From Candidatus Promineifilaceae bacterium (GTDB lineage Bacteria; Chloroflexota; Anaerolineae; Promineifilales; Promineifilaceae), in NCBI GenBank assembly GCA_965223395.1, contig OZ244996.1, forward strand, positions 2,064,876 through 2,128,875: a stretch of DNA of 64,000 bases, written 5' to 3'. This document shows, in pieces, positions 1 through 64,000 of the stretch (position 1 is the stretch's first letter; the number at the start of each line of letters is the position of its first letter). Below the pieces are notes generated by a model that did no database searches, was not told the origin of the DNA, and worked only from the letters and a program-made list of their open reading frames with translations. The position numbers and the translations under genes were made by a program.

Positions 1-2
1 AA

Positions 3-1040
3 ATGGATGGGCAGGAACAAGGGATTGATGGTGTTCAGGTTGACCTAATAAACCTTGTGGACAATAGTGTGATTTTAACAACGACAACATCTGGTGGCGG
101 ATATTATTTATTCGACAACTTAGACCGCGGCAACTACAAGGTAAGTATTCCTGCTAGCCAATTCCAAACGGGCGGTCTCTTACATGGATTTTACTCTTCG
201 ACAGGTCATGGCAGTGATGAAGATACCAATGACGAACATGAAGATGAAAATGGCATTGATACGACATCGCCAATGACAGATGGTATCACCTCAATTACAG
301 TCACACTATCCTTAACCGATGAACCGATTGGTGAAAATGGTGCAGTGACTGGTTATGCAGACAACAACACTAACTTGAAAATTGATCTTGGTTTGGTACC
401 AACTGTAGCCATTGGCAACTTTGTTTGGGGCGAGAATGATGGAGATGGCATCTTTGAGAGTGCCAACAGTGATGAAGTAGGCATAGGTGGAATTACAGTA
501 GAACTTTACAATGGCTCTGCCACTCCCGGACTTTCTACACCTATCATGACCACGACCACCAATACCGATGGTTATTACCAATTCATTGGCGTGCCAGAAG
601 GCGGGTATAAGGTGGCAATAAAAAATAGCGAAGTTGTTTCATTAGGGCTTGGTTACATGATGCCTAGCAGTTCAAATATTACCTATCTTCCTGAAAGAAC
701 GGATGAAGATGGTCAAGGTTATTACAGTAGCAATAGAACTGGTAATGATGGTAAATTAAATTCCTACGGTTACTCAACAAGCATCAGGTTCAATGCTTTT
801 GTCTTAAGTCAAGATGCCACAACAGCAGGGGTTGATGCAGATACGAGCACGCATCCCGATACGAGCGCTTATATGACAGTGGATTTTGGCTTCGCCCCAG
901 AGAGTGCGCCCACTGCCATCTCATTGCAAACGTTTGGCGCAAACGCCAGCAAAACCAGCATGTTAACCTTCATCTTAGCGGCTATTTTACTCAGCTCAGC
1001 TTCAATTCTCGCCTCGCGCAAGAATCAAATAGACGCTTAA
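3..1040 (+). CDS. Partial (5'-truncated) cell-surface protein with repeated SdrD-B/Cna-B-like beta-sandwich modules and a C-terminal hydrophobic anchor followed by RKN
   Basis: ORF runs from window edge; repeated G(Y/Q)Y-x-F-x-(L/V)-x-G-x-Y-K-V motifs (GGYYLFDNLDRGNYKVSIPA, DGYYQFIGVPEGGYKVAIK) typical of SdrD B / carboxypeptidase-regulatory-like repeats; C-terminus LTFILAAILLSSASILASRKN is a TM helix plus basic tail (sorting-signal-like); region is low GC and lacks the TGCCGGCA palindrome. Confidence 0.5.
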   Translation: MDGQEQGIDGVQVDLINLVDNSVILTTTTSGGGYYLFDNLDRGNYKVSIPASQFQTGGLLHGFYSSTGHGSDEDTNDEHEDENGIDTTSPMTDGITSITVTLSLTDEPIGENGAVTGYADNNTNLKIDLGLVPTVAIGNFVWGENDGDGIFESANSDEVGIGGITVELYNGSATPGLSTPIMTTTTNTDGYYQFIGVPEGGYKVAIKNSEVVSLGLGYMMPSSSNITYLPERTDEDGQGYYSSNRTGNDGKLNSYGYSTSIRFNAFVLSQDATTAGVDADTSTHPDTSAYMTVDFGFAPESAPTAISLQTFGANASKTSMLTFILAAILLSSASILASRKNQIDA

Positions 1041-1066
1041 TTTAGGCTCGAATTTTCCTATACAGG

Positions 1067-1105
1067 CTGGCAGGCGTCGCGGCGTTTGCCAGTCTATTCT
1101 TTTTA
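1067..1105 (+). terminator. Putative intrinsic terminator between convergent genes
   Basis: Imperfect stem ctggcaggcg...cgtttgccag followed by tctattcttttt. Confidence 0.35.
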
Positions 1106-1882
1106 ACGATGAACCAATTTTTGCAACGGTTCATGGAGAGCGGCGCTGCTCGCCAGACAACCATCGTCAGCTAATTGCCAGGGAAAACCCGCCAAATTGC
1201 TCATTTTGCCGCCTGCCTCTTTGATCAGCAATCTGCCGGCAGCCCCATCCCAAGCATACAACCCAAAATTAAAATAGGCGTCAAATCTGCCGGCAGCAAC
1301 CCAAGCCAATCCCAACGCAGCCGACCCTACCGAGCGAGCAGTATGGGTTAAAGGGGTAACTCGATTGACGCTATCCAACAATTGCCGGCGAGTTACTGCC
1401 GAACGACTCCAATCAAACGCCACTACTGACTCATCTAACGACTTTCTAGGACTGCCAAACATTTGCTCTCCATCCCGAAACGCCCCTTTACCCACAGTAG
1501 CGGTAAACATTTCGTCACGCATCGGGTCATATACTGCGCCTACCACCGATTGGTTACTTTGATCTACCACCCCCACCGACACCGAAAAGAGGGGCAACTG
1601 AAAGCTATAATTGCTGGTGCCATCCAACGGGTCGATCACCCATATATAATCGCCGCTTGCCGGCAACGACTCATCATCTTCTTCTGTGAGAAATCCATGC
1701 GTTGGATACCGCTCGCGAATCAAATCGGTCACGATCGTTTGAGCGGCGATATCCGCGTCGGTGACTAAATCTCGAAATCCTTTGGATTGGACAATGCGAG
1801 GTTGCAAAAATAGCTCACGCAAGCGCATGCCAGCGCTTCTCGCCGCCTCTTCCGCCGTATGCAAAAAATCATTAAATTCCAT
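1103..1882 (-). CDS. suhB: Inositol monophosphatase family protein
   Basis: 259 aa; motifs DYIWVIDPLDGTSNY and WDGAAG characteristic of IMPase/FIG superfamily. Confidence 0.85.
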   Translation of the reverse strand: MEFNDFLHTAEEAARSAGMRLRELFLQPRIVQSKGFRDLVTDADIAAQTIVTDLIRERYPTHGFLTEEDDESLPASGDYIWVIDPLDGTSNYSFQLPLFSVSVGVVDQSNQSVVGAVYDPMRDEMFTATVGKGAFRDGEQMFGSPRKSLDESVVAFDWSRSAVTRRQLLDSVNRVTPLTHTARSVGSAALGLAWVAAGRFDAYFNFGLYAWDGAAGRLLIKEAGGKMSNLAGFPWQLADDGCLASSAALHEPLQKLVHR

Positions 1883-1991: not shown

Positions 1992-3617
1992 TTACTCAAT
2001 ATCTTCCATCAATTCAGCTTGCTGTTCGTTGGCAAACTCAGTCAGGGCGTCCAATGTCGATTGGATATCCGCCCCTTGCATAATCTCGTTATACGCCTTC
2101 TGCGCTTCGTCCCGCACGGAAGAGTACGAAATCAATTGTGGTTCATATTTGCCAAACTCCAACAAAGCCAACGCCTCGTCATATTGCTCGCGGAATCCTT
2201 CCATGGCAGTGCCAGGAACAAATTCGTCGAGGTGGTCGGCGGTGCCGGCACGGGTGGGGAAATAGGAGCTGATGGTCAACCAGCGGGCTTGGTTCTCCGG
2301 TTGGGTGAACCATTTCGCAAATAACCAGGCAGCCAGCTCTTGCTCAGCCGTTGTTTTGGTGATCATCACATCTGCGCCATACACATTGGCGGTTGGTTCG
2401 CCAGTATACGGAATAGCGGTCACGCCCCAAACATCTGGGTCTGAGCTGCTCTCTTCGGCAAAGGTAGCGATGTCGCCAGCATAGAAGCGCATACCAGAGG
2501 TAGAGCCCTGGGTGAACAGAGCGCGTCGGGCGGCAAACTCAGGGTTAGGAAACCCATCGGTGAAGAAGTAGGCGCAGCCATCGTCCAGCATCCCTTTCAA
2601 GAAGGTCAACGCTTCCACAGTGGCGTCGCCGTTATACACATATCCTTCGCCATCTTCACTCAACACGTCGCCGCCAAAGGCGAATGTCCAAGCTGCTACA
2701 GCCGAGGCGTCGTCACGCAAGATATATCCGCCGGTGCCATCGCCATTCGCTTCCGCAGCGGCGCACGCCATATCGCGGAATTCGTCGGGGCTGGTAGGCG
2801 GATCAGAAAAGCCTAACTCTTCTAACCAAGTTTTGTTGTAATACATCACTTCGATAGAACGATTGGGCGGGAAGCCGAGTCTTTGGTTATCAAAGGAGGT
2901 ATGAATGCCTTGGTTAAAGAAACCAGAGTAGAAATCATCTGCCTCTTCGGCGCTCAAACCCCAATGGTGGTCAAAAATCAAGTCGTCCAAATTAACCAAA
3001 GTATCATTGAGTTGATAAAAAGCTTGGTCATTTTGATAGCCAACCAACAAAGCTGCCGGCAATTCTCCGGCGCCAATGCTGACGTTTACTTTGTCGCGGA
3101 TATCATCGTAACCGCCCTGGTTAATCGCTTCAACAGTGATGCCGCATTCGTTGTCGGCATTAAAATCGGCGACCATTTCCAGCAGCCCTTCTTCGCGGGA
3201 GCCGCTGTGTTGGTGCCACCAGGTAATTTGTTGACCGCTAGGGTCGATGCCGGCATACGCCCCATCTTCAGCGGGAGAGCAGCCGCCCATCATATCATCC
3301 ATGGCGTCGTCAGCAGCGTCGGCAGCGTCGTCCATCGCGTCTTCTGCGGCATCGGCAGCTTCAGCGGCGGTCGTGGCGGCTGCATCGGCAGCTTCCCCAG
3401 CGGCTTCAGCAGCTTCGGCAGCGGCAGTAGCGGCGGCATCTACGGCTTCGGCGGCGGCGTCAGCGGCAGAATCAGCAGCGTCCGCAGCGGCGTCGGCAGC
3501 CGTATCGGCGGCAGTAGCCACAGCGTCAGCAGCGTCTTCAGCGGTCGATGTACACGCCGCTAAAACCAAAATCATCAGCGCCGCGATGAGAGTCAATAGT
3601 GACTTTCTCGTTTTCAT
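1992..3617 (-). CDS. ABC transporter extracellular solute-binding lipoprotein (family 1, sugar-type) with long Ala/Asp-rich tether
   Basis: Start at ATG 3617 preceded by AGGAGAAG; signal peptide + lipobox LAAC; approx 90 aa low-complexity (A/D/E/T) linker then SBP_bac_1-like domain; first gene downstream of two permeases. Confidence 0.75.
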
Positions 3618-3864
3618 AATCAATTCTTCTCCTAAAAAGTATCTTTTCATTATTTGTAACATTAAAAGTTATTTTAATCTCGACTTTCAACACAATAACA
3701 TCAATTGCTCTAGTTGCACCACCTCCTTATTTGAGTAGCGTATAAATTTTTTGATATGGCTATTATGCCGGCATTTCAGCCACAACCCAACGCCATAGCA
3801 ATGTTGCCGGCAATGGAAAACTCCTGAGTCAATATCATGAGAACCATATCAAAATAATGTTAAA

Positions 3865-4758
3865 TTATCCCTTCAGTCCCGAAGTAGCGATTCCTTCGGT
3901 AAATTGCTTTTGTGTAAAGAAATATACCACCAAAATAGGCAAAATTGTGATCACTGCGCCAGCCATTTGCAAATGAAAATCAGAGCCAGCCTCGTCTAAA
4001 AAGGCTAACATCCCATAAGAAATAACCCGCCAATCTGGCGATGTGGTCACCAAAATGGGCCAAGCCAACGCATTCCAAGAGCCGACAAAGCCGAACAAAA
4101 TAATGGTGACTAGCGGCGCCCTGGACAATGGCACCATAATTCGCCACAAATAGCGTAAATGTCCAGCCCCATCAATTTGCGCTGAATCCCATAGTTCCTT
4201 AGGAATTTGCATAAAAAATTGGCGCAGCAAAAAGATATTAAATGCGCTCGCCATAAAAGGAATAGTTAAAGCGGGCCAATTATCAATCCATTTAACGGGA
4301 CCTATTTGCCCCAACCAAGAAACGGTGATGAAATTTGGCACCCAGGTAATTGCCTCAGGCAACAGTAAGGTAGACAAAACCAAGCCAAACAAAAAATTTT
4401 TGCCCGGAAACTCTAACATGGCAAAGGCATATGCCGCCAACGTACAAAAGACAACTTGACCTACCAAAATCAAGGCAGTCACTTTGACGGTATTCCAAAA
4501 ATAGAGCGAAAATTTCGCTTCGTTCCACGCCTCGGCGTAATTGCCCCACTGGGGAATTCTGGGCAGAAAGGCGCCGCCAGTCGCCTCTGTTAAATTCATC
4601 AAAGAGACGCTAATAGTGTATAAAAAAGGCACCAGCGCCACTACCGCTCCAACAATCAAGAAGATATATGCGATTATCCGCCCGATATCATATCGTTGAG
4701 CGTCGGGATGTTCCGTTGTGGCTCTATCTTGTCGATTAAGCGTAATTGAATCAGCCAT
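3865..4758 (-). CDS. Carbohydrate ABC transporter permease (MalG-like)
   Basis: 297 aa, 6 TM, EAA-loop motif [21 protein letters not shown]. Confidence 0.85.
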
Positions 4759-6466
4759 AAAATACCCTATCTTTCGCCAAGCGATTATTAATGGTGGTCA
4801 ATATGATGATGATCAGCAGCAGCAAAATAGCCAATGCCGAAGCGTACCCATACCGATTTTCGCGGTTAAACGCCTGAAAAATAACGACGCTGGCGGTATC
4901 GGTAGTGCCCAGCGCCGCCCCCAACCGCATCACATAAATGCGATTAAACGCCTTAAAAGTGCCGATCACCGCCAGAAGCATCAAAAAATAGATGGTAGGA
5001 GACAATAAGGGCAACGTCACATTTCGGAATTGTTCCCATCTGCCAGCCCCATCGATAGACGCCGCTTCGTATAACTCTTTTGAAATTGAGCCAAGCCCTG
5101 CCATAAAGATCACCATATCAAAGCCGACATATGTCCACACGTTGTATAAAACAATGACAATCAAAGCCAAACTGGGACCAGCTAACAAGATCGGCAAATC
5201 TTGTCCAGTCAACAATTCAAAGATGCCGCGAGGCTCGTTTAACCAACCTAAGGCATCAAAACCCAGGCTAGTCAATATCGTGTTGATGGGACCGCCTGAG
5301 CGTCCAGAAAAGATGATGCGAAAAGCGGCGGCTGTGCCGACCAATGGGGCGATGTAGGGCAAGAAGTAAATCATGCGGAATGCCGTTTTGCCAACGATAT
5401 CTTGAAAGAGGATGGTGGCTAAGGTGAGCGATAGTATAAATTGCATGGGGATAGTCAGCGCGGCAAAAAAGACGGTAGCCAATAATCCTTCCCACCAATC
5501 TTGGTTGCCAGAACCAATCGCTGCCGGCAATTCCCCAATCAATACCCAGGCTCCCACTGCCAATGCCGCCGCCCCCCCCAACCGCCAAAAGGTTTTGCTG
5601 TTGGAATCTCTGTTTGCGGCACTTTTCCACAAAAACCAAGAGAGCAATAACAGCAAAATGCCGGCGCTAATTACCAGCACTTGCGTCCAAATATCTAATG
5701 TCTCTCCCTCTGCCAATGCCTCGGCAATAGCCCGATTGACCTCAGAAAAAGTAAACCATGCCAAAAAACCCGCCCCGATTAAGTAGAGCCAAAATTGGAA
5801 AGCGTTGGCATAGTAATCGTCATTGCGCGGGCTGCGGGACGCGCCTCGGCTCAGGTAAAAGTAAGCGACTATTGCAGCCACCGCCAATACGGCTATCGCT
5901 AGCCAAAAGCTAGATTGTATTTCAGGCAATCGCCAAACCTCGCCTAAATACCCGATAAACAACTGCTGAGTCATCGCCGTGCCCCTAGGCAATTTCTCCG
6001 GTATGGTGAGCAAATTGGGCAAAGATGTAAAGACAAACCGAAGCAGCAAGGCTATGGCAATCGCTATTATCAAGCCCGGAAGCAGCCAAATCGTGCTGTT
6101 TTCATTGTATTTGGCGGATAGTTCACGACTTGCGCGAATTTTTTGAATTGCCAAGTAAACCAATACCACAGCGATCCAAAATCCCAACACGTAGGTCAAA
6201 TTATCGATGGCGCGGACATAGTTGCTTAAACCATCGTAACGCCCCACAATTTTGTTTAAGCCCCGCAAGGTGCTTTCGTAGGTAGTAAAGATTAAGGGGA
6301 AAAGCCCAAAGGTAAAGATGATGAGAAATGCCGGCAGCAAAAAGGCGTACGCTAATAACGTTTCCCGTAATCGACGCCCCTGTTTGCCAGAGAAAATGCC
6401 GGCAAACCCGCCTTTCGCAACGCCGTGCGCCGGCTCACTTCCGGTTGAAATTGCCGTGTCGCTCAT
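4751..6466 (-). CDS. Carbohydrate ABC transporter permease (MalF-like, extended N-terminal membrane region)
   Basis: 571 aa multi-TM, EAA motif [21 protein letters not shown]; GGAGGG RBS before ATG at 6466; 8-nt overlap with next permease. Confidence 0.85.
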
Positions 6467-6872: not shown

Positions 6873-7775
6873 TTAAGAACGATTTAATTGTTGGTCTATC
6901 AACTTTCTCAAACCAGCAGATAAATCTTGTGTCGATAACCAACCAATCAGTTTCGCAGTCCGTTCAGCGTCTGCCTGTTGCAAATCGGGGTCGCCAGGGC
7001 GATTGGGCAATTTGCCGGGCAATGGCGCTCCACCCCGCCCGACAATTTGGTAAACTTTTTGGGCTACGTCCAACAAAGAAACGGCGACGCCAGTTCCAAT
7101 ATCCACGCTCATGCCGGCATCTAAATCGGTGTCGATCATGCTCGTCAATCCCGCTGCCACATCGGCGGCAAAAATCCAATCTCGCTTTTGACCGCCGCTA
7201 CTCATCGGGAAATTATCCCCTGCCAACGCAGCAGCTATGGCTGACGGAACAAATGCATTGCCTGGCTGTCCTTCGCCATACGCCTGAAAAATCATCCCGC
7301 CATGAATTCGCCAATCATAAGTTCTGGCATACATCTGACAATAACTCCAAGCTGCCGCTTTGCTGGCGGCATACACATTCATCGGACTTAATTCGCCCGG
7401 GGTTCGCGCCACAATCGCCTGCTGGCATTCTCCGCCCCCAAAACATGCTCGCAATAGATTGATCGTCCCAGCCAAATTGTGACGATTGGCGCGGGATGCC
7501 GGCAAAAATGGCTCTGTCGCCCCTGCCGCTGCCAAATGAACCACTATCTGGGGAGACGCTTGGCGGATGGCTCGTTTGGTTTGAGAGAAATGGCGTAAAT
7601 CGGCGTAAACTAGCTCAACTTTCGCTCGTAAGGGGCGCAGCGGCGCCGGCAATTGCTTACCAACCCCATACCGCTCAGACGCCAAGATCGTTACGTTATA
7701 CCCCGCCTCAACCAACTGTGAAACCAAATATCCGCCAATAAAGCCTGTGCCGCCAGTCACCAATATTTTTTTCAT
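6873..7775 (-). CDS. NAD-dependent epimerase/dehydratase family protein
   Basis: Likely start MKKILVTGGTGFIGGYLV (Rossmann GxxGxxG) at 7775; ORF track extends to 7877 but extension covers a hairpin and lacks RBS. Confidence 0.75.
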   Translation of the reverse strand: MKKILVTGGTGFIGGYLVSQLVEAGYNVTILASERYGVGKQLPAPLRPLRAKVELVYADLRHFSQTKRAIRQASPQIVVHLAAAGATEPFLPASRANRHNLAGTINLLRACFGGGECQQAIVARTPGELSPMNVYAASKAAAWSYCQMYARTYDWRIHGGMIFQAYGEGQPGNAFVPSAIAAALAGDNFPMSSGGQKRDWIFAADVAAGLTSMIDTDLDAGMSVDIGTGVAVSLLDVAQKVYQIVGRGGAPLPGKLPNRPGDPDLQQADAERTAKLIGWLSTQDLSAGLRKLIDQQLNRS

Positions 7776-8106: not shown

Positions 8107-8931
8107 CTATGAAAAATGGCGCAAAATGAAGTCTACAGATTCTTCCAAACTCATTTCTCCCGCAACGACCATTTGCCGGCATTGCCGCTCCCAAGCAAAT
8201 ATCACGGTCTGCGATAGTTGTAATTCCCGCAAAATAAGGCGGACAATCTGTCCCCCATCCGCCAAATAACCAGAATCTTCAAACCCTTTTTCAGCGGCGG
8301 CACGATCATACGGCAATCGAACGATACGAGCTTCCCATTGGTCGTGGCGCCATTCCAGTTGAGCGTAAGCCGCCCGCCAGTCGCTGTCAAACGGCAACCC
8401 CACCGCTCCACTATTAACCACAAGCGAGCCATTGAGCCGGCGCATTAAGGGGCGATGAGTGTGCCCTACTAAAAACAGCGCTGGCGGTTGTCCCATCAAC
8501 GCCTTGATCTGCTCATCAGTAGAGAATGGATAGATGCCGGAGCGGTTGCTCTGCATAGATGCATGGGTCACCCTAATTTCGCCCCCATCTGGCGCCGCCA
8601 GGGTGACCAATGCCGGCAACTCGGCTAAATCGTCAATATGGTCACCTAAATCATCACATGTCCAATAACAATGGCGATTAATTTCAAATGACAATTCATC
8701 TTGAATTTCGGTTGAGGCTGCTGTTTCCAACACATATGCTTCATGGTTGCCTTCAATGATTTGCCATCTTCGGTCAAGTAACAATTGAAGGCAGGCGCGA
8801 GAAAATGGACCGCGATTAACCACATCCCCATTGACCACAACCTGATCTGGCTGCCACTTTTCGATATCATCCAAAACAGCGCGTAATGCCGGCAAATTGC
8901 CGTGAATGTCGGAGAGAACTGCTAATTTCAT
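8107..8931 (-). CDS. Metallophosphoesterase (calcineurin-like phosphoesterase superfamily)
   Basis: MKLAVLSDIHGN, GDVVNRGP, GNHE motifs. Confidence 0.8.
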   Translation of the reverse strand: MKLAVLSDIHGNLPALRAVLDDIEKWQPDQVVVNGDVVNRGPFSRACLQLLLDRRWQIIEGNHEAYVLETAASTEIQDELSFEINRHCYWTCDDLGDHIDDLAELPALVTLAAPDGGEIRVTHASMQSNRSGIYPFSTDEQIKALMGQPPALFLVGHTHRPLMRRLNGSLVVNSGAVGLPFDSDWRAAYAQLEWRHDQWEARIVRLPYDRAAAEKGFEDSGYLADGGQIVRLILRELQLSQTVIFAWERQCRQMVVAGEMSLEESVDFILRHFS

Positions 8932-9060: not shown

Positions 9061-9312
9061 TTATGCGCTTTTGTGAATGATTATTTCTTCGTCATCGAAA
9101 CTATTGTATTTGGCGTCTCCCAAATCTTCTTTTGGCATAAAGAGAGCCAATGCCAAGTATATCAAAGCCGCTTTGCCGGCAGAAGCCATTATCAGGACGG
9201 CAAAGAGGATTCGGACGACCACCGGATCGATATTCATCGCTCGCCCGATGCCGGCAGCCACTCCCAAGAAAAGGCGGTCATCCTCCCGACGAACCAATCT
9301 TTTTTCACTCAT
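9061..9312 (-). CDS. PspC-domain protein
   Basis: 83 aa; RLVRREDDRLFLGVAAGIGRAMNIDPVVVRILFAVL matches PspC N-terminal domain + TM. Confidence 0.7.
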   Translation of the reverse strand: MSEKRLVRREDDRLFLGVAAGIGRAMNIDPVVVRILFAVLIMASAGKAALIYLALALFMPKEDLGDAKYNSFDDEEIIIHKSA

Positions 9313-45554: not shown

Positions 45555-45555
45555 T

Positions 45556-56955: not shown

Positions 56956-57777
56956 CTATTGTCCCCAAACCTGCTGAAACAAATCTGGCTGGTAGCTTGC
57001 CCAGATGGTCAGCCAGGGCGGGGCAATGCTTTTGAAATGTTCCCAACTACCCGGTTCCGGTTCGCTTTCTTGGGGCAACTCTTCCCACATGCCCAGAATC
57101 ACCATTTGGTTGCCGGCAATGCCGGCAATCAACCGATTCATCGTATGCCGAAACTCTACCGGACCTTCCACCTCTTTTTTCGTCCCATCCTCACCCTCAA
57201 ACGTCCAATTCAGCTCGTCAAACTCAACTGCACCCGCACGGTAAGGGCTTTTTAGCAGATACCCTTCCCCTGTCCATCCCGTCTCATCCATCCCCATCAC
57301 AAAGGGGTTGTGGCATTGCATCCGGTAGATGCCCCCCGGTTGGAGAACCCGGCGCACATCGGCAAAAACAGGGTCCGGGTCAGGCACAAAGTTGATGGAA
57401 AAGGCGTGGAAAACAAGGTCAAAACTATCATCGGGGAAGCGAGACAAATCCCGCATATCCCCCTGCTCTAATCGAGCAGACAAGCCGTAATGTTGCAATG
57501 CGTCAGCATCCCGTTCTAGTTGGGTAGCAGAAAAGTCTAACACCGTCACATTTGCCTCTAGCAAACCAAAAGCGACTGATTGTTGCCCGCCACCGCCTGC
57601 TAGACAGAGGACGTTTTTGCCGGCAATATCCCATCCCAATTTTCGCAACACCTTTTGTTCATCCACTACTTTCCATGCCGATTCAGGCGTTAAGTCCAAA
57701 AAAGGGCGGGAGTAAGCGACATTTGCTTTTGCCAATGCTTCCCATCTGGCTTGATTGTGCCGAGTTAGTTTATCCAT
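56956..57777 (-). CDS. Class I SAM-dependent methyltransferase
   Basis: VLCLAGGGGQQS motif I, VLDFS motif II; ORF track extends to 57903 through repeat element, start chosen at MDKLTRH (uncertain). Confidence 0.6.
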   Translation of the reverse strand: MDKLTRHNQARWEALAKANVAYSRPFLDLTPESAWKVVDEQKVLRKLGWDIAGKNVLCLAGGGGQQSVAFGLLEANVTVLDFSATQLERDADALQHYGLSARLEQGDMRDLSRFPDDSFDLVFHAFSINFVPDPDPVFADVRRVLQPGGIYRMQCHNPFVMGMDETGWTGEGYLLKSPYRAGAVEFDELNWTFEGEDGTKKEVEGPVEFRHTMNRLIAGIAGNQMVILGMWEELPQESEPEPGSWEHFKSIAPPWLTIWASYQPDLFQQVWGQ

Positions 57778-57937: not shown

Positions 57938-58519
57938 TCACTGCGGGTTCTTGCCCACAATGCCGGCAAAATACGCCTTCATTTGCCTCATATCCTCTGC
58001 CATATCCTCTGTGGGGTGAAAAGGCGGGGCGATCTTAATCGTTTTGCCCGGAAAATCTAAACCAATCATCACCACCGGCACGCCAGCCCCTTTGGCGATG
58101 TGGTAAAAACCACTCTTCCATTCCCGCACCTTTGCCCGCGTGCCTTCTGGCGTAATGCCCAAAATCAACGAATCATTATTTTGGAACTGCTCAATCATCT
58201 GGTCAACCACCCCATGCGCGGCAGAACGGTTGATGGGAATGCCGCCAAACCACAACATCAGCCGCCGCCATGGACCCTGAAACAGGGTATGTTTGCCCAT
58301 CCATCGTAAATTGACCCGTAAGGCGAATATAGTGGTCATCGCCAACGGAAAGTCCCAATTGGAGGTATGGGGAGCGCCTATCGCCACAAATTTGGTTAGC
58401 TCGGGCAATTCGCCGCTTACTTGCCAGCCAAATAGCCGCAAAATTTGCTGGCTGATTTTTTGCCCTAACGCCGAACCGCGTCGGGGAATCGCCGGAGGAA
58501 TTTCTGAAAACTGCGTCAT
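57938..58519 (-). CDS. PlsC-family 1-acyl-sn-glycerol-3-phosphate acyltransferase-like protein
   Basis: HTSNWDF (HX4D) and PEGTR motifs. Confidence 0.8.
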   Translation of the reverse strand: MTQFSEIPPAIPRRGSALGQKISQQILRLFGWQVSGELPELTKFVAIGAPHTSNWDFPLAMTTIFALRVNLRWMGKHTLFQGPWRRLMLWFGGIPINRSAAHGVVDQMIEQFQNNDSLILGITPEGTRAKVREWKSGFYHIAKGAGVPVVMIGLDFPGKTIKIAPPFHPTEDMAEDMRQMKAYFAGIVGKNPQ

Positions 58520-58526: not shown

Positions 58527-59456
58527 TCACTTTACACTTTCATTCGAAGCGCGCTGTTGGATAAATGTCGTTATCGCCTCAATTACTTCATTCCAAACGG
58601 GTTGGGGCAAGGCGTGCCCCACTCCCTCTAAAATCAACAGTTCGGCATTGGATATCGCCGCTGCCGTATCTTTGCCGGCATCTACCGGGATAAGCGGGTC
58701 GGCGTCGCCATGAATCACTAATGTGGGGGTATCGATTGCCCGCAACGCTTCATGCCGGCTGCCGCTGCCCAGCCCCGCCGCCAACTGACGAGATGATCCG
58801 GCTGGCGTAATTCCTTGCCGCCACATCGCCCGGGCGATGGCAATGGTAACCTCTTCTTCGACCGGATAATAGGGACCATTCAATATTTTCGCTGCCTGTA
58901 ACTGCCGCGTTTGATATTCTTCCCAACTAGCGGCGGGCGGTTTCGCCAACAAAGCCAACGCATCCTGGGTTGGCATCGCCAATCCAGGACGCATGGTGGT
59001 AGACATGATGGAGATCAAGCTTTTGACGCGGTTAGGGTGGTTGATCGCCGCTGTTTGGGCGATCATGCCGCCTAATGAGACGCCTAATAGATGCGCTTTT
59101 TCGATGCCCAAAGCGTCCAGCAGCCCGATGGCGTCATCCGCCATATCCGCCAATGTATAAGGCGGTTCAGGCACGCTCCCGCCCATCATCGCTGGCATAA
59201 ACGGCTGAATATCGACCATGCCGGCATCATCAATTTGAGTCGAAAGTCCCACATCTCGGTTATCAAAACGAATTAGATAGAACCCGCTGTCGGCAAGCTG
59301 CCGACAATACCTAACATCCCATCCAATTAGCGGCATACTCAACCCGGCAATCAACAGCAATGCCGGATTCGCCGGGTCGCCAATCGTATCATAGTTGATT
59401 TCGATGCCGTTGACGGGAAGCAATTTTTGCGGAGGGGTTAGTGAGCCGCTATCCAT
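58527..59456 (-). CDS. Alpha/beta hydrolase
   Basis: GVSLGG nucleophile elbow; 309 aa. Confidence 0.75.
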   Translation of the reverse strand: MDSGSLTPPQKLLPVNGIEINYDTIGDPANPALLLIAGLSMPLIGWDVRYCRQLADSGFYLIRFDNRDVGLSTQIDDAGMVDIQPFMPAMMGGSVPEPPYTLADMADDAIGLLDALGIEKAHLLGVSLGGMIAQTAAINHPNRVKSLISIMSTTMRPGLAMPTQDALALLAKPPAASWEEYQTRQLQAAKILNGPYYPVEEEVTIAIARAMWRQGITPAGSSRQLAAGLGSGSRHEALRAIDTPTLVIHGDADPLIPVDAGKDTAAAISNAELLILEGVGHALPQPVWNEVIEAITTFIQQRASNESVK

Positions 59457-61146
59457 CTTTAGTCGCTTTCTGGCGCATCTTTGCTAACAATGCCGCCATT
59501 TTGTCGTTGCCGCCAGCTGGAGGGCGCCAATCGACATGGACGGCTGAGCTGCCTTGCTCGATCACGCTATCATAAAATGATTCCAACCCCACATTGATGC
59601 CGGCAAATGGGCGTTGAAACGACTCCAAATCGACCGGTTTTCCCAGTTGAGGCGGCGCATTTTGGAATCGTCGGTTGATCGTCTCTGCTAAATCAACAGC
59701 AGACGCGTAAATAGTTGCCCCAGCTTTTTCCAGGGCGTCGATCTGTTGATCTAAACCCTGCGGGTCATCCTCCGTTCCGACAACTAAGACAAACACAGGC
59801 AATTTGCGTCGAGCCCGAATGCCGGCAATCGCTGGCGCCAGTTCGCTGGCTGGGTCGGGATGCGCCCCCTCGCCCAGAACCAGATCAAGCAATAGCGCCC
59901 CCGTCTCCGGATCGTCCGCCTCTTGCTCCATGCGGCGCAAACGCAAATCATTGTCCATCATGGGATGCAGCCGTCCCTGCGTAAAATCGTCCGCCCCCAT
60001 ATCGACCAGGGCGTTCCCCCGACTCTGGAAGGGGTCAGCCATCTTTTGCGAAGGATGAACGGGTGTATTGGTAAATAACGGATTGAGCCTCCCTTGCAAC
60101 GCTAAAACCATCTCATACGCTAGCGTGCCGCCGGAAAATAATCCGCGCACATAACCGTTTATTGGTTCCTCAGATGATGCCGCAAGGGTTGCGCTACTGT
60201 GCCCCAATTTCATTGCTAATCCAGCCGCGTCAGCTAAATTTAAGGCAAAATGGAGGTTGCCCTGCCGCCGCGCAGGGGGAGCGTATCCCATAAAGTAAAT
60301 TACAACGGGTTTACTGGCTTGGCTGGCTAAAGTCAGCAAGCGGCTGGTAACGCTTGGAGATGGCGGTTTTGAAGCCAGCACAATCACTTCTGTTTGGGGG
60401 TCGCGGTTGAGCAACTCTACTCCTTGGGCTGCGGTAACGCCGCCCACCGCTTCAGATAGGTCGCGTCCGCCTGCCCCAATCGCCTGAGAAACTCCGCCGC
60501 CTAATTTGTGGATATGGACGGCAATCGCTTGCAAGCCAGTGCCAGATGCAGCGACGATGCCGGCATTTCCCCGCCGAACGCGATTGGCAAAGCCGATACC
60601 CACCCCATTGATGATGGCTGTGCCGCAATCGGGACCCATCACCAGCAACCCATGTTCTCTTGCCTCCTTTTTGAGCTTAACCTCGTCATCAATCGTCACG
60701 TTGTCGCTGTACAAAAAGATATGTTTGCCCAGCCGCAACCCTTCTTTGGCGACGCCCGCCGCATACCGCCCTGGTACAGAGACGAGCGTCCAAGCCGCCC
60801 CCGGCAACATTTTCGCCCCATTTTCCAAGCTGCGTGGGCGATAATCTGAGCCAGCCCCCCCGCTACGGCGAGCTTGCAGCAAAGCGTCTACTTGCGCCAA
60901 CGCTTCTTCGCCCGCTTGTTTGTTATCCGCTTTAACTACGATGAGCAAATCATCGGGGAATGTTTGGGGCAAGGCTGCCGGCAAAATCTCGCCCGCCTCC
61001 AATAGCTCTAAATTTGCCGGCGTCGCCATCACACACCCTGCATCCAATACGCCGGGCAATTCGGTCAATGCCCGTTGTAGCTGCATCAAAACGACAGAAT
61101 CAAAATAAGCTCCGCGCCGAATCTCAAACGTAGTCTCACCCATCAT
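59449..61146 (-). CDS. FdrA family protein (succinyl-CoA-synthetase-like, CoA-binding + ligase domains)
   Basis: N-terminus IRRGAYFDSVVLMQL...VMATPAN matches FdrA/AllF; 565 aa. Confidence 0.65.
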   Translation of the reverse strand: MMGETTFEIRRGAYFDSVVLMQLQRALTELPGVLDAGCVMATPANLELLEAGEILPAALPQTFPDDLLIVVKADNKQAGEEALAQVDALLQARRSGGAGSDYRPRSLENGAKMLPGAAWTLVSVPGRYAAGVAKEGLRLGKHIFLYSDNVTIDDEVKLKKEAREHGLLVMGPDCGTAIINGVGIGFANRVRRGNAGIVAASGTGLQAIAVHIHKLGGGVSQAIGAGGRDLSEAVGGVTAAQGVELLNRDPQTEVIVLASKPPSPSVTSRLLTLASQASKPVVIYFMGYAPPARRQGNLHFALNLADAAGLAMKLGHSSATLAASSEEPINGYVRGLFSGGTLAYEMVLALQGRLNPLFTNTPVHPSQKMADPFQSRGNALVDMGADDFTQGRLHPMMDNDLRLRRMEQEADDPETGALLLDLVLGEGAHPDPASELAPAIAGIRARRKLPVFVLVVGTEDDPQGLDQQIDALEKAGATIYASAVDLAETINRRFQNAPPQLGKPVDLESFQRPFAGINVGLESFYDSVIEQGSSAVHVDWRPPAGGNDKMAALLAKMRQKATKDG

Positions 61147-62294
61147 TTGCCTCCGCTTTCTGTTGAAATGAGACGGTTTTCAGTTTCGCGCATATGTTTT
61201 TTGAGGTAAACGGTAAAAGGGGTCCCGCCGGTGCCTACAACCTCATGCTGTTTAGCCGGTTTCAATATGTACAAGGCGGCATATTCGATGTGCAGTTGTC
61301 GGAATAGACGCAACTGTTCAACGGCAAAGTTGTACGCTTGCAGCAATGTGGCGTTGCCGGCATGTTTCACATATTCTCGCGCCGAACTTTTCGACTCTAA
61401 ATGGACGATAAAGTCCCGGTCGGCTGCCGGCATATAATCCCGCATCTCCAGCAAATAAGCCCTCATCCGATCATGTTCATGTTGGATATCTAATGCGGCG
61501 TCGAATGCGTAAATAATGCTGCTTTGCGCCCCCGTCTCTCCCCGAAATTGCTGAGGTTTGCCGGCATATTCCGCCACCCCTTTGTAAATTAACCCATTTG
61601 GCAACGCTGGGTTATCTTTCCAGCCAAACATAAAGGGGCGAATGCGATGGTAATAGATGTATGGGTCGCATCGTTCTGGCATTCGCGCCAATAGCTGCCG
61701 CATGCCGGCCAATGTCTCGCCGATACGTACCAGGCATTTTTCTAAAGTTTGATCATCCTGTTGGGCTACCGCTGTAAATGCCGGCAACAACGCCGCCAAC
61801 CCTTTTCCCGCCGCCGCTTCTATCTGAACATGAATGCCGACAAACCACTCTTCATCCTGCCCGCCTAAAAAATTTTGAACCAACGTGATATTTTCAACCG
61901 TAATCTCCCCATCCGAATTGATGCGCCGCCAATTGTGCAGCGTTTGCGAAGCGTAGGCTAAAATCGGCGGGCGTTTGAGATAAGAAGCGACCTGATATAA
62001 GCCTATCGCCAAATGGCGCGGCAATCGGTCTGGAACAGGCAACCCAGGAGCGTAAAGGTAAAGGCTTGCCATATAAGCCAACATCGTCATTGCCCGCTCA
62101 TATTCGCGGTCATCCATTAAATCCTTAACAGGAAATGGGGGCAGATTTTCAACGATGGGTCGTATTTGTGGTGTAAGAACCAATTTGGAGAGTTGCGCCG
62201 CCATCTCTTCCCAGGGGGCAAAGGAAGTTGCCGGCAATCGGGTTAGGGGGTCTGGAGTAGGCAAAAAGCCGTGCGACCAATCACGGGGTTCCAT
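61143..62294 (-). CDS. Indoleamine 2,3-dioxygenase (IDO) family haem dioxygenase
   Basis: Alignable by eye to human IDO1 core: FGWKDNPALPNGLIYKGV / SGWKGNPQLSDGLVYEGF; GETGAQSSIIYAFDAALDI / GGSAGQSSVFQCFDVLLGI; MRDYMPAADRDFIVHLES / MRRYMPPAHRNFLCSLES; proximal His in LFRQLHIEY. Confidence 0.8.
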   Translation of the reverse strand: MEPRDWSHGFLPTPDPLTRLPATSFAPWEEMAAQLSKLVLTPQIRPIVENLPPFPVKDLMDDREYERAMTMLAYMASLYLYAPGLPVPDRLPRHLAIGLYQVASYLKRPPILAYASQTLHNWRRINSDGEITVENITLVQNFLGGQDEEWFVGIHVQIEAAAGKGLAALLPAFTAVAQQDDQTLEKCLVRIGETLAGMRQLLARMPERCDPYIYYHRIRPFMFGWKDNPALPNGLIYKGVAEYAGKPQQFRGETGAQSSIIYAFDAALDIQHEHDRMRAYLLEMRDYMPAADRDFIVHLESKSSAREYVKHAGNATLLQAYNFAVEQLRLFRQLHIEYAALYILKPAKQHEVVGTGGTPFTVYLKKHMRETENRLISTESGGK

Positions 62295-62333
62295 ATCAAG
62301 CGCTATTGTACCGCAAATAAATAAGTGCGCGGA

Positions 62334-63623
62334 TTAAGAATCGGCGTGCTGCGCTACTGATAACGACTGGGGAACGTCTCCATTGAGGTAAGGGGACATG
62401 GACAAATAACTTTTAAAAAGGGTTTCCAATTGTTGGGTCGAAACGTGAATGTTGTATCCATTTTCAATCGTTTTTCTGCCGGCAACTCCTAACTTCCTGG
62501 CAAAAGCGGGTTCCTGCAAATATCGCTCAATTGCCTCCGCCAACGCCTCCGCATTCTTCTCAGACGTCAACAAACCCGTCTGGTTATGGGTGATTAACTC
62601 TGGCACGCCCGAAACAGTTGTAGAAATAACCGGCACCTGCATCGCCATCGCTTCCATCAACACCACTGGAATCCCATCCATATCCCCATCTTCCGCCACA
62701 ACGCATGGCAGCACAAACATCGCAGCCCGTTCCAAATAATCCCGCAACTCTTCCTGAAAAATAGTGCCCGGCAACTTAACCACATCCCCCAATTGATGCG
62801 CTTTGATCAATTGCTGCAACAATTCAAATTGGGGACCAGCCCCGCCGATAACGCATTGAAACCGATACCCTTTTTCTTTTAATATGCGGCACGCTTCAAC
62901 CAGGTAAGGGTATCCCTTCCGCTCGGCATGATTCGAAACAGAAAATACCAACGGTATCTCAGATGATGCAAATCCATTTTTTCGTTCAAAGCTCTCGGGC
63001 GAAATGCCGCAATGCACGATATGAAACTTCTTTTCCAAATCCCTTTGTTCGGGGGCAAAATCGAGTAAGTATTGTTTGCTAAATTCAGATATCGAAACGA
63101 TAAAGTCAGCCGCTTTCAGCTTCTTTTTGAGAATCAGTTGGTCGGTGAAGATGTTGTTATGGACGGTAAAGCTGAAGCCCACGCCTAAAAAATCCGCCAT
63201 TACCATGCCAATAGTGGCGGCATTCACCGAAAAATGGGCATGGACATGCTGGGCGCCGCTATCTTGAACCTGATGCGCTAGATAGACGCCGCCAGCGAAA
63301 TGCCCCAACGTCCGAATTCGGTTTCTGAGTTTTTCGTTCCGCCTAAAATTAACGGAAGCGAACGTCTTTAAATATTGGATTGGTCTCCCCGCCAACATCG
63401 CCAGATGCGCTAAGATAAATTTCCCCCATTGGATGGGAAATACGTAGGTGGTGTCTGCCATAAAGTCGATAGATTCTTCAGACAATTTGGCTGGCTCTGG
63501 GGTGCGGTTAGCGACGGTGATTACCTTAAAGCCATTTTGGCGAAGGGCTTCAACCTCCCGATAAACAAAGGTTTCGGTTAAATAAGGGAAAAATTGGGCG
63601 ACGTAGACGATGGTGGGTCTCAT
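62334..63623 (-). CDS. Glycosyltransferase family 4 (WcaL-like)
   Basis: N-terminal YVAQFFPYLTETFVYREV; C-terminal EAMAMQVPVISTTVSGVPELI (GT4 EX7E). Confidence 0.7.
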   Translation of the reverse strand: MRPTIVYVAQFFPYLTETFVYREVEALRQNGFKVITVANRTPEPAKLSEESIDFMADTTYVFPIQWGKFILAHLAMLAGRPIQYLKTFASVNFRRNEKLRNRIRTLGHFAGGVYLAHQVQDSGAQHVHAHFSVNAATIGMVMADFLGVGFSFTVHNNIFTDQLILKKKLKAADFIVSISEFSKQYLLDFAPEQRDLEKKFHIVHCGISPESFERKNGFASSEIPLVFSVSNHAERKGYPYLVEACRILKEKGYRFQCVIGGAGPQFELLQQLIKAHQLGDVVKLPGTIFQEELRDYLERAAMFVLPCVVAEDGDMDGIPVVLMEAMAMQVPVISTTVSGVPELITHNQTGLLTSEKNAEALAEAIERYLQEPAFARKLGVAGRKTIENGYNIHVSTQQLETLFKSYLSMSPYLNGDVPQSLSVAQHADS

Positions 63624-64000
63624 TTATATTCGATCAAACTGCTTTGGCGGGCGACATAAAATTTCGTTTGCCCGATCAGTTGGGGAAATTTGCCAATAAC
63701 GCACGATGCAGCGTACAAAACGGCGTCGTTTTTCTCTATTCCCTTGTTTCGCATGCTCAGGTACACTTTTAGGGCTAGCGCCAGATAGCCGCCTAGAAGC
63801 AACAAACTAAAGCCGCGTGTCGACTGAGTGAGCCCAATCGCCAATGCCGGCATTAAAGCTGCCCACAACCAAATACTGGCACTTTCTCTCAAGCCAAAAC
63901 GTTCAGCCGCTCTGCCATGCCGCCACACAGAATGCGCATAGGCGCTGCCCGCCCGCATCGCCCGCCGCCACCATTGGTTAAAAGATGTTATATTGGCGTC
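63620..64000 (-). CDS. Partial (3' end only) hydrophobic membrane protein, runs off window
   Basis: TM-rich C-terminal 112+ aa; 4-nt overlap with GT4 start. Confidence 0.35.
   Translation of the reverse strand, partial: DANITSFNQWWRRAMRAGSAYAHSVWRHGRAAERFGLRESASIWLWAALMPALAIGLTQSTRGFSLLLLGGYLALALKVYLSMRNKGIEKNDAVLYAASCVIGKFPQLIGQTKFYVARQSSLIEYK

Follow-up and report, generated by a model that had tools for sequence, protein, structure and literature searches.

The highly iterated palindrome HIP1 (GCGATCGC) of cyanobacteria was recognized three decades ago, but how it arose and what it does are still debated; the candidates are repair directed by methylation, a role in chromosome structure, and a signal for transformation or uptake. 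Comparable short words include the uptake signal sequences (USS) of Pasteurellaceae and the DNA uptake sequences (DUS) of Neisseriaceae, which occur at about one or more copies per kb, exist as dialects, inflate the peptides that they encode, and are scarce in recently acquired DNA. Both are non-palindromic words of 9–12 nt, and DUS often form inverted pairs in terminators. In Escherichia coli, the Dcm/Vsr system biases the frequency of CCWGG about 1.3–2-fold. Here we describe the 8-bp perfect palindrome TGCCGGCA in a 64-kb stretch of DNA (“the window”; 51.1% G+C) from a Candidatus Promineifilaceae bacterium (Chloroflexota, Anaerolineae; assembly GCA_965223395.1, contig OZ244996.1, positions 2,064,876–2,128,875). 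The word occurs 135 times in the window, which corresponds to 2.1 copies per kb (2109 per Mb). We show that TGCCGGCA belongs to the HIP kind of iterated palindromes and is specific to a lineage; it is a short symmetric word written across the native chromosome by a force acting on the DNA itself.

A link between HIP1 and a methyltransferase has been published, and in three cyanobacterial genomes HIP1 is replaced by GGCGCC, GCsGC, or rCCGGy, each with a gained cognate methyltransferase (PMC4390886). According to a preprint, Synechococcus PCC 7002 is transformed better with methylated HIP1, by a factor of up to more than 100 (bioRxiv 10.1101/2024.09.10.611283). Preprint work also reports that HIP1 abundance co-varies with the DNA-uptake machinery and proposes an uptake or recombination signal, and HIP1 density has been set against gene families in an analysis of the phylogenetic profile or phylogenetic generalized least squares (PGLS) type (bioRxiv 10.64898/2026.06.24.733823). 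In the open-access literature that we searched, HIPs are described in cyanobacteria only; we found no description of an iteration of TGCCGGCA or of ACGGCCGT (a related word treated below), nor of HIPs in Chloroflexota, Anaerolineae, Promineifilum, or Ardenticatena.

On all sequence-level criteria open to testing, TGCCGGCA belongs to the HIP class (sensu Elhai 2015), but it is not HIP1. Both words are 8-bp perfect palindromes, the inner 6 bp of which are all S or rich in S and form the site of a type II restriction-modification system; both populate genes as well as spacers, and both have an optional palindromic 10-bp extension. HIP1 reaches 300–2700 copies per Mb with observed-to-expected ratios (O/E) of 55–228 (PMC4390886), compared with 2109 per Mb and an O/E of about 50–127 for TGCCGGCA in the window and 3186 per Mb in the related locus L081. 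The core of TGCCGGCA is not enriched outside the octamer, and the same is reported for CGATCG within HIP1 (PMC4390886). Moreover, orthologous copies are conserved above background and spacing is non-random in both systems, the latter as next-neighbor spacing in the case of HIP1 (PMC5861425). The two differ in sequence and in phylum: the iterated word is TGCCGGCA and not GCGATCGC, and CGATCG has only 7 copies in the window against 19 expected. A Dam-type enzyme is not involved in TGCCGGCA, because the word has no internal GATC. Another difference is that whole sister clades of the Anaerolineae use different words, whereas cyanobacterial HIP1 is nearly universal and its alternatives are sporadic.

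The rCCGGy HIP of Oscillatoria PCC 10802, which is associated with DmtD, resembles TGCCGGCA in its CCGG-centered core, with GCCGGC, GCCGGT, and ACCGGC enriched. Its top octamer CACCGGCA/TGCCGGTG (647 per Mb, O/E 32) shares the half-site CCGGCA/TGCCGG with TGCCGGCA (PMC4390886). However, the Oscillatoria word is degenerate and mostly non-palindromic, while in the window only the full palindromic octamer is enriched, ACCGGC/GCCGGT are depleted (O/E 0.57), and the density is about 3–5 times higher. With USS and DUS, the TGCCGGCA system shares its density, its dialects, its footprint on the proteome, and its scarcity in foreign DNA, but its unit is a perfect palindrome (8 bp, extended palindromically to 10 bp at the most), and its five spacer copies are unpaired. 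The likeness to Dcm/Vsr would lie in a short palindromic methyltransferase site, the frequency of which is shifted by repair bias, yet the excess here is 50–100-fold instead of about 1.3–2-fold, and the depletion of C-to-T neighbors is absent.

Abundance and placement of the palindrome

The abundance of TGCCGGCA exceeds every null model used. Base composition predicts 1.06 copies (order 0; O/E 127), 100 dinucleotide-preserving shuffles of the window gave a mean of 2.54 copies (sd 1.51, maximum 7; O/E 53), and a third-order Markov model predicts 9.4 copies. Inside open reading frames (ORFs), the 130 copies observed compare with 9.1 ± 2.7 (maximum 17; O/E 14) in 300 gene-by-gene shuffles of synonymous codons, in which all proteins and the codon usage of each gene are preserved. 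A preliminary description of this stretch had claimed a very high recurrence in genes and spacers alike, and the counts bear this out, with a Markov O/E far from 1 (14 at order 3). Its tally of seven copies between 9.1 and 10.95 kb was exact (9174, 9249, 9736, 9838, 10750, 10873, and 10946). The second-ranked palindromic octamer of the window has only 6 copies, and the 24 kinds of octamers with one mismatch to TGCCGGCA sum to 65 copies, about half of the 135 copies of the word itself.

What is enriched is the octamer rather than the hexamer GCCGGC (the NaeI/NgoMIV site), because 135 of the 166 GCCGGC sites in the window are flanked by T...A. The remaining 31 copies amount to no enrichment of the hexamer outside the octamer. 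On the other side of the octamer boundary, position −1 is A/T in 107 and position +1 is A/T in 110 of the 135 copies, G at −1 and C at +1 are disfavored (6 copies each), and a weaker R/Y preference is seen at ±2; further out, the flanks are uninformative. The favored form is WTGCCGGCAW. The A/T-extended form that had been noted earlier stands as such a preference, although the particular 10-mer chosen to name it, TTGCCGGCAA, has only 19 copies; ATGCCGGCAT has 27.

The ORF map, which was built greedily, comprises 47 ORFs with 93% of the window coding, and the gene content is that of an ordinary chromosome (proA, proB, trpF, argG, htrA, aconitase, formate-tetrahydrofolate ligase, ABC transporters, and glycosyltransferases). 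ORFs hold 130 copies of TGCCGGCA (96%) and spacers hold 5, and at least one copy is present in 44 of the 47 ORFs. Within the ORFs, 74 copies are read as xxT-GCC-GGC-Axx (Ala-Gly), 53 as xTG-CCG-GCA ([Leu/Met/Val]-Pro-Ala), and 3 as TGC-CGG-CAx. A repeated gene family therefore does not explain the word, since the 44 ORFs are of unrelated families and spacers carry copies as well. The two main frames, the rare third frame, and the spacer copies exclude a function at the level of peptide or RNA, and the lack of conservation past the flanking positions excludes a mobile element. The copies are listed below by ORF, with the peptide read given after the coordinates of each copy; “common to L081” marks copies present in that related locus.

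1103-1882, minus strand, ORF: 1234..1241 AAGR; 1288..1295 AAGR; 1658..1665 LPA
1992-3662, minus strand, ORF: 2243..2250 RAGT; 3054..3061 LPA; 3248..3255 YAGI
Spacer copies: 3766..3773; 3805..3812; 22253..22260; 25259..25266
Spacer copy in a segment previously called motif-free: 45835..45842
4751-6466, minus strand, ORF: 5522..5529 LPA; 6329..6336 LPA; 6397..6404 FAGI
6873-7877, minus strand, ORF: 7112..7119 DAGM; 7497..7504 LPA
8107-8931, minus strand, ORF: 8174..8181 CRQ; 8611..8618 LPA; 8887..8894 LPA
8941-9336, plus strand, ORF: 9174..9181 FAGR; 9249..9256 DAGS
9394-10659, minus strand, proA: 9736..9743 LPA; 9838..9845 LPA
10667-11767, minus strand, proB: 10750..10757 LAGK; 10873..10880 PAGI; 10946..10953 MPA; 11573..11580 LPA
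11815-13323, plus strand, ORF: 12161..12168 LPA; 12179..12186 VPA; doublet 12714..12721 PAGI and 12723..12730 IAGI
13342-14004, plus strand, trpF: 13470..13477 VAGI; 13836..13843 NAGI
14015-15535, plus strand, ORF: 14557..14564 FAGI; 15345..15352 VPA
15536-18274, plus strand, DUF2723 protein, not marked as shared: 15555..15562 LPA; 15841..15848 AAGI; 16882..16889 IAGI; 17319..17326 LPA; 18057..18064 VPA
15536-18274, plus strand, DUF2723 protein, common to L081: 15900..15907 MPA; 16117..16124 LAGI; 16417..16424 LAGI (outgroups LAAL/FVAL); 16776..16783 MPA; 17190..17197 LPA (outgroups LPP); 17250..17257 MPA
18448-19611, plus strand, htrA: 18533..18540 LPA; 19392..19399 IAGS
19692-20792, plus strand, ORF: 20120..20127 NAGT (common to L081)
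20859-22250, plus strand, ORF: 20944..20951 LPA; common to L081 21218..21225 NAGI, 21334..21341 LPA, 21803..21810 NAGI, and 22136..22143 DAGN
22333-23787, plus strand, ORF: 22626..22633 TAGI and 23439..23446 HAGK (both common to L081); 23586..23593 IAGI
23791-25152, minus strand, ORF: 23904..23911 SAGI; 24196..24203 LPA; 24597..24604 YAGN; 24673..24680 MPA
25436-26698, plus strand, argG: 26536..26543 VAGR
26695-27891, minus strand, ORF: 26764..26771 MPA; 27343..27350 MPA
27935-30631, minus strand, aconitase: 28309..28316 IAGN; 28561..28568 IAGN; 29005..29012 FAGR; 30350..30357 VPA; 30544..30551 DAGI
30909-33092, plus strand, ORF: 31448..31455 AAGM; 32836..32843 MPA; 33043..33050 MPA
33159-33731, minus strand, ORF: 33182..33189 YAGI; 33411..33418 LPA
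33757-34692, minus strand, ORF: 34243..34250 LPA; 34471..34478 MPA; 34576..34583 LPA; 34642..34649 LPA
34778-36367, plus strand, ORF: 35472..35479 MPA; 35523..35530 LPA; 35662..35669 VAGM; 36058..36065 YAGK; 36344..36351 CRH
36377-37252, plus strand, ORF: 36888..36895 MPA
37383-39230, plus strand, ORF: 38198..38205 DAGI; 38408..38415 PAGM; 38639..38646 IAGR
39510-40571, plus strand, ORF: 39712..39719 LPA; 40325..40332 DAGI
40553-42874, minus strand, ORF: 40733..40740 MPA; 41113..41120 NAGS; 41195..41202 LPA; 41873..41880 LPA; 41905..41912 NAGI; 42175..42182 FAGT; 42354..42361 CRH
43003-45363, plus strand, ORF: 43662..43669 RAGK; 44181..44188 IAGK; 44661..44668 VAGN; 45293..45300 MPA
46807-48060, plus strand, ORF: 46866..46873 IAGI; 47676..47683 DAGI
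48057-48758, minus strand, ORF: 48114..48121 LPA; 48660..48667 VPA
48771-49667, minus strand, ORF: 49079..49086 YAGR; 49457..49464 NAGI; 49532..49539 AAGN
49698-50696, minus strand, ORF: 49949..49956 NAGI
50714-51436, minus strand, ORF: 50890..50897 DAGI; 51259..51266 VAGM
51553-53574, minus strand, ORF: 51909..51916 HAGI; 52167..52174 AAGI; 53047..53054 LPA; 53358..53365 DAGN; 53524..53531 MPA
53765-55534, plus strand, ORF: 53839..53846 IAGM
55596-56840, minus strand, ORF: 55685..55692 DAGI; 55922..55929 TAGI
56956-57903, minus strand, ORF: doublet 57111..57118 IAGN and 57120..57127 IAGI; 57618..57625 IAGK
57938-58519, minus strand, ORF: 57961..57968 FAGI
58527-59456, minus strand, ORF: 58673..58680 DAGK; 59219..59226 DAGM
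59449-61146, minus strand, ORF: 59598..59605 FAGI; 59820..59827 IAGI; 60558..60565 NAGI; 60976..60983 LPA
61143-62294, minus strand, ORF: 61355..61362 HAGN; 61425..61432 MPA; 61559..61566 YAGK; 61779..61786 LPA; 62229..62236 LPA
62334-63623, minus strand, ORF: 62477..62484 VAGR
63620-63958, minus strand, ORF: 63845..63852 MPA

Several other candidates for the nature of the word were rejected. Terminator hairpin pairs do not apply, as no hairpin pairing was found among the five spacer copies. A dispersed repeat of the repetitive extragenic palindromic (REP) or miniature inverted-repeat transposable element (MITE) type does not apply either, as only 8–10 bp are conserved and 96% of the copies lie within ORFs, compared with units of more than 20 bp that have hairpin potential and are mostly intergenic. 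A peptide motif was rejected because the word occurs in several frames and in spacers.

Two pairs of TGCCGGCA lie 1 bp apart and form the doublet TGCCGGCAWTGCCGGCA (12714–12730 and 57111–57127), and these encode runs of the PAGIAGI and IAGNAGI type. A metagenome scan for this doublet returned no HIP-dense contig among the matches listed (at least 120), which were essentially chance matches, mostly to GC-rich contigs. A viral scan with a loose form of the doublet gave chance matches among those listed, and an exhaustive viral scan with the strict form gave 44 loci, none with more than 4 copies, and no phage at a host-like density. Among the matches listed in the loose scan are three GC-rich IMG/VR contigs, L171 (8.6 kb, GC 0.67), L174 (14.4 kb, GC 0.71), and L158 (13.8 kb, GC 0.70), with 11–13 copies of TGCCGGCA each (0.8–1.5 per kb), well above composition, and with abundant GGCC. 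They are likely to stem from phages infecting unrelated hosts, in which a regulatory or packaging motif is repeated. Several announcements of Arthrobacter phages name the TGCCGGCA octamer in their abstracts.

Dialects in related lineages and imprint on proteins

The nearest relative via the DUF2723 protein (L081; 54% identity) is syntenic with the window at 15.5–23.8 kb and carries 69 copies of TGCCGGCA in 21.7 kb against 0.6 expected (3186 per Mb). The four nearest aconitase relatives (74–75% identity; GC 0.58–0.63) fall into three contig sets, in which TGCCGGCA is the top palindromic octamer, with 20 vs. 0.9 and 16 vs. 0.8 expected copies in L322/L323, 16 vs. 1.0 in L324, and 4 vs. 0.2 in L325. 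In total, five contigs that represent three or more other related populations share the word. Within this dialect the density drops as G+C rises, from 3.2 per kb at a GC of 0.47 to 2.1 at 0.51 and 0.7–1.2 at 0.58–0.63.

The best argG relatives (70–73% amino acid identity) are metagenome-assembled genomes labelled as Ca. Promineifilaceae, Ca. Leptofilum, Ardenticatenaceae, or Anaerolineae, and none of these carries TGCCGGCA. Instead, 16 argG relatives carry ACGGCCGT at 0.4–2.0 per kb (6–36 copies against 0.2–0.4 expected), with L011 (6 copies) and L013 (10 copies) as the weakest carriers, L012 carries TCGGCCGA (28 copies against 0.5 expected), and four show a looser enrichment of CGGCCG with C/G flanks. 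The complete Ca. Leptofilum chromosomes NZ_OZ244997.1 and NZ_OZ245005.1 are of the ACGGCCGT dialect. Among the aconitase relatives at 72–73% identity, L328 carries ACGGCCGT (29 copies against 0.2 expected) and L326 has no enriched octamer. A third, L327 (GCA_964452775.1, CAYVQP010000002.1; 18.4 kb), is enriched in GCCGG/CCGGC, with 77 GCCGGC against 15 expected. Its CCGG sites are 2.2-fold up and mostly preceded by G or followed by C (GCCGGG 35, GCCGGA 32, ACCGGC 28) with mixed outer flanks, and the locus looks like an unfinished or looser version of the TGCCGGCA word. In the farther Anaerolineae and Firmicutes loci, no palindromic octamer exceeded 0.6 per kb, and O/E stayed below 10 except for a marginal 16 in L074.

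In tentative single-gene neighbor-joining trees, the window is sister to the clade with the CGGCCG word based on argG, and the window and L322–L325 form one TGCCGGCA clade based on aconitase. The phenomenon thus characterizes a radiation of Anaerolineae in which the dialects are discrete. On balance, we lean toward a second HIP system in the Promineifilaceae/Ardenticatenaceae radiation that arose independently of the cyanobacterial one, and in which the word was switched between sister clades (TGCCGGCA, ACGGCCGT, TCGGCCGA, and the looser states enriched in GCCGG or CGGCCG). The same phenomenon is seen in another phylum at an equal or higher density, with a measurable imprint on proteins and clean switches of the word from clade to clade.

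The word ACGGCCGT (loci L002–L016, L030, L064, and L328) is the exact complement (mirror) string of TGCCGGCA, and both have the form W-SSSSSS-W. There are 16 possible palindromes of this form, so a mirror pair arises by chance in about 1 of 16 cases, and no physical reason for it is apparent. Avoidance is reversed in the sister clades: GCCGGC is nearly missing from several ACGGCCGT genomes among L002, L003, L008, L009, L014, and L016 (0–1 copies against 9–14 expected), though not from L004 or L005. In the TCGGCCGA genome L012, CCGG is depleted (21 against 85 expected). The octamer CGAGCTCG occurs 9–10 times per 21 kb in L078 and L079 (Oscillospiraceae/Acutalibacteraceae), with an O/E of about 8 under a first-order and about 3 under a third-order Markov model, which is far weaker than the enrichment of the words of the Anaerolineae clade.

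Copies of the word are kept at orthologous positions. In codon alignments of five orthologous genes between the window and L081 (48–79% amino acid identity, 62% nucleotide identity), 13 of 22 copies (59%) occupy the same column and frame, compared with 5.1% of other 8-mers and 4.2% of 8-mers with equal G+C, and the unshared copies mostly lie where the peptide context differs. In the ACGGCCGT dialect, pairs at 80–87% nucleotide identity keep 80–100% of their copies against 20–35% of other 8-mers; for example, the pair L016 and L064 keeps 26 of 31 copies against a fraction of 0.24 for other 8-mers. The preliminary description had interpreted the word as a native, HIP1-like genome signature, and this interpretation is upheld by the hyper-abundance of an 8-bp palindrome, its dispersal over genes and spacers, the rarity of its variants, its sharing within the lineage, and its conservation at orthologous sites.

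The iteration has also left an imprint on protein sequences. In the window, 53 of the 62 [LMV]PA tripeptides (85%) and 74 of the 104 x-AG-[IMTNKSR] contexts (71%) are encoded as TGCCGGCA, whereas codon usage alone would place the word in a few per cent of such contexts. In the TGCCGGCA lineage, counted as the window plus L081 (26,346 aa), [LMV]PA occurs 3.53 times per 1000 aa, compared with 0.78 in the ACGGCCGT genomes and 0.81 in those Anaerolineae that lack an iterated palindrome, and the corresponding values for AG[IMTNKSR] are 5.69, 2.82, and 2.75. Relative to relatives without TGCCGGCA, this amounts to a 4.5-fold and a 2-fold inflation, respectively. Reciprocally, TAV reaches 2.45 per 1000 aa in the ACGGCCGT genomes against 0.23 and 0.39 elsewhere (6–10-fold), and the other peptides encoded by ACGGCCGT, [NHDY]GR and RP[FLSYCW], are about 2-fold up in the ACGGCCGT genomes only (Fisher P=4e-23 and 1e-32 for the reciprocal inflation). 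That the peptide bias runs the other way in sister lineages using another word identifies it as an effect of the word, not as its cause. Within the DUF2723 protein, motif sites lie partly on ancestral peptides (e.g., LPA in all outgroups) and partly on derived ones (LAGI/IAGI vs. LAAL/FVAL, LPA vs. LPP, and IAGI vs. AAAV). Based on these derived residues, the word has driven amino acid replacements, and the dipeptide and tripeptide composition of proteins can thus be driven by a force at the level of DNA.

Origin of the iterated word

Two further lines of evidence bear on the origin of the word, namely the spacing of its copies and the frequencies of its sequence neighbors. The distances between copies in the window are more even than random (coefficient of variation, CV, 0.784 against 0.987, P=0.0018), and the largest gap is 1846 bp. 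Spacing is also significantly even in L012 (P=0.006). The test is conservative because compositional heterogeneity would raise the CV. An undirected mutational by-product predicts Poisson or clumped spacing, not the even spacing seen here.

For the neighbors of GCCGGC, the window and L081 were pooled and compared with a second-order Markov expectation. The C-to-T neighbors are not depleted (GCTGGC/GCCAGC, O/E 1.09; GTCGGC/GCCGAC, O/E 1.09). The depleted neighbors are all three variants of the outer position (NCCGGC where N is not G; O/E 0.55–0.61), and this only shows that CCGG tends to sit within GCCGGC. The neighbors of CGGCCG show no transition-specific depletion in 232 kb of the sister clade, and at the octamer level, where counts are small, transition neighbors are no rarer than transversion neighbors. 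The classical Dcm/Vsr signature is absent, and a very-short-patch version of the origin is disfavored. No gene for a DNA methyltransferase, Vsr, or restriction enzyme was found in the window by NCBIfam or Pfam on the ORFs judged to be real genes, a scan that left out ORF 20859–22250, whose orthologue in L081 is a solute-binding protein. A motif screen for methyltransferases and Vsr in the related loci, applied to every ORF with a length of 150 aa or more, was likewise negative.

The explanation that we favor, if tentatively, is that the word is a methylation-marked recognition site favored during repair or recombination. The word would most likely serve as the site recognized by a dimeric DNA enzyme with sequence specificity, the gene of which lies elsewhere in the genome; this enzyme would probably be a cytosine methyltransferase with the (G)CCGG(C) core as its target, and by analogy with HIP1 and its alternatives, a link between TGCCGGCA and a methyltransferase is plausible. 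Sites marked in this way may be favored in DNA repair or recombination, including recombination with incoming DNA from relatives, such that word-bearing alleles would replace word-less alleles and existing copies would be protected. The other words in the sister lineages (ACGGCCGT and TCGGCCGA) are what a switch in the specificity of the recognizing enzyme would be expected to leave.

Several points weigh against this explanation. The T/A flanks are left unexplained by the published model based on G-m5C (where m5C is 5-methylcytosine). The conservation of orthologous copies is compatible with purifying selection and with continual re-creation by drive, and cannot separate the two. Sequence alone does not reveal methylation, and neither a methyltransferase nor a reader protein or competence gene was encountered in the window and related loci, where no search aimed at competence genes was made. 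To our knowledge, natural transformation is not documented for this lineage, and we know of no uptake receptor or competence genes in it. In addition, the evenness of spacing is significant in the window and L012 only; L081, L016, L064, and L003 trend toward evenness but are too short for significance, and L008 does not (CV 1.15).

Among the alternatives, a word without further function that accumulates as a by-product of methylation-directed mismatch repair seems somewhat unlikely to us. In the ratchet proposed by Elhai, mismatch repair is directed by G-m5C, GCCGGC is the end state for an rCCGGy methyltransferase, and sites saturate near 1 per kb (PMC4390886). Here, a resident m5C methyltransferase of the CCGG or RCCGGY type, together with repair biased to G-m5C strands, would let GCCGG, then GCCGGC, and then the octamer accumulate until dense. 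The GCCGGC core of TGCCGGCA is this predicted end state, the top octamer of Oscillatoria PCC 10802 has the same CCGGCA half-site, and L327, with its GCCGG/CCGGC enrichment, 77 GCCGGC against 15 expected, and mixed flanks, resembles an intermediate; even spacing is also expected once sites saturate. However, the 2.1–3.2 copies per kb in the window and L081 are 2–3 times the predicted saturation of about 1 per kb, no G-m5C is gained from the obligatory T...A flanks, no nicking enzyme of the kind postulated for G-m5C is known, and no methyltransferase was seen in the window or related loci. We regard as unlikely that the word is instead a methylation-independent binding site of a chromosome-organizing or other DNA-binding protein, kept at a regular density by selection. 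About 8,000 identical sites (2.1 per kb extrapolated to the 3.76-Mb contig) are not required by any known nucleoid protein, the switches of the word between sister lineages would mean that thousands of sites were rewritten time and again for the sake of a housekeeping function, and there is no candidate protein. These objections stand against a spacing more even than random, a strong conservation of orthologous sites, a palindrome that suits a dimeric binder, and a role in chromosome structure that has been proposed for HIP1 (PMC5861425).

A by-product of very-short-patch repair, as suggested in the preliminary description, in which a Vsr-type endonuclease and an m5C methyltransferase for GCCGGC turn T:G mismatches into C:G in near-cognate sites, is very unlikely. 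While the mechanism is established for CCWGG in E. coli and the core is a classic m5C restriction-modification site, it would deplete selectively the C-to-T neighbors of the core, which remain at an O/E of 1.09 in both cases; the depleted neighbors are outer-position variants of every kind (O/E 0.55–0.61), and transition neighbors of the octamer are no rarer than transversion neighbors. Moreover, the effect in E. coli is about 1.3–2-fold and not 50–100-fold, neither even spacing nor T/A flanks are predicted, and the window contains no vsr gene. Finally, the codons GCC, GGC, and CCG are common in the window, but we give almost no credence to the count being an artefact, whether of codon usage, of amino acid composition, of a gene or domain family present in repeated copies, or of a miniature mobile element. 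This reading was rejected, as it is refuted by the synonymous-codon shuffles (9.1 against 130 observed), the spread over 44 of 47 unrelated ORFs in two frames and over spacers, the flanks that are unconserved beyond ±2, and the peptide bias that reverses in sister lineages with a different word.

If there is indeed a second HIP system with words switched between clades, the protein that writes or reads the word could become identifiable by co-variation, because the switches are discrete and mapped on a phylogeny. This would settle the origin of HIPs among methyltransferase-linked drive, an uptake signal, and repair. In cyanobacteria, nothing co-varies with the HIP1 word because nearly all of them share the same word, whereas the dialect switches of the Anaerolineae are natural replicates for testing whether the word follows methyltransferase specificity, as the cyanobacterial exceptions suggest. 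In practice, the word offers a sharp marker for binning and for the detection of foreign DNA in uncultured filaments from wastewater, soil, and sediment.

Low-GC segments and scarce palindromes

Three ORFs of the window have a low G+C and lack TGCCGGCA:

3..1040, plus strand, ORF with weak matches to SdrC/SdrD-type adhesin repeats: GC 0.44, 0 copies
3865..4758, minus strand, ABC permease: GC 0.45, 0 copies, 2 of the 13 GGCC sites of the window
45972..46733, plus strand, methyltransferase fold of the small-molecule type and not a DNA methyltransferase: GC 0.40, 0 copies

The ATG of the first ORF lies at position 3, on the left edge of the window, and the ORF could extend upstream beyond it. The preliminary description had called the segments 1–1040 and 45364–46740 free of the word, which is correct for 3–1040 and 45972–46733 but not for all of 45364–46740, where a spacer copy lies at 45835. 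The absence from each low-GC ORF taken singly is not significant. Pooled, these two segments and 3865–4758 hold 1 copy in 3.3 kb against about 7.2 expected at the coding density (Poisson P ~0.006, for a grouping chosen after seeing the data). This scarcity agrees with a gradual build-up of the word over the time that DNA resides in the genome, and the ORFs at 3–1040 and 3865–4758 were probably acquired more recently. The permease ORF 4751–6466, which adjoins 3865–4758, has 3 copies of TGCCGGCA and no GGCC, and ORF 3865–4758 may be a recent replacement of a single gene inside an operon.

The tetramer GGCC is nearly missing from the window, with 13 sites against about 413 expected (O/E 0.03), at 4058, 4274, 13248, 17549, 19011, 21594, 28854, 36426, 37294, 46905, 52120, 52187, and 61707. 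Because of this, the hexamers that contain it are near zero as well (CGGCCG 1 vs. 32, TGGCCA 0 vs. 29, GGGCCC 0 vs. 31, and AGGCCT 1 vs. 13 expected). GGCC is equally scarce in L081 (3 against 104 expected), while its O/E in L322–L325 is 0.4–1.4. Since L322–L325 carry TGCCGGCA yet keep GGCC, the loss of this tetramer is independent of the iterated palindrome; it probably reflects long exposure to a restriction activity of the HaeIII type. Numerous further 6-bp palindromes are strongly depleted in the window as well, including AGATCT (0 vs. 8 expected), TCGCGA (1 vs. 20), CTGCAG (1 vs. 13), ACGCGT (1 vs. 13), CCGCGG (3 vs. 32), CGCGCG (4 vs. 39), and GGATCC (2 vs. 19), and the tetramers CGCG, TGCA, and CATG have an O/E of 0.4–0.6. 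The depletion of palindromes in the window is a broad fingerprint of restriction avoidance.

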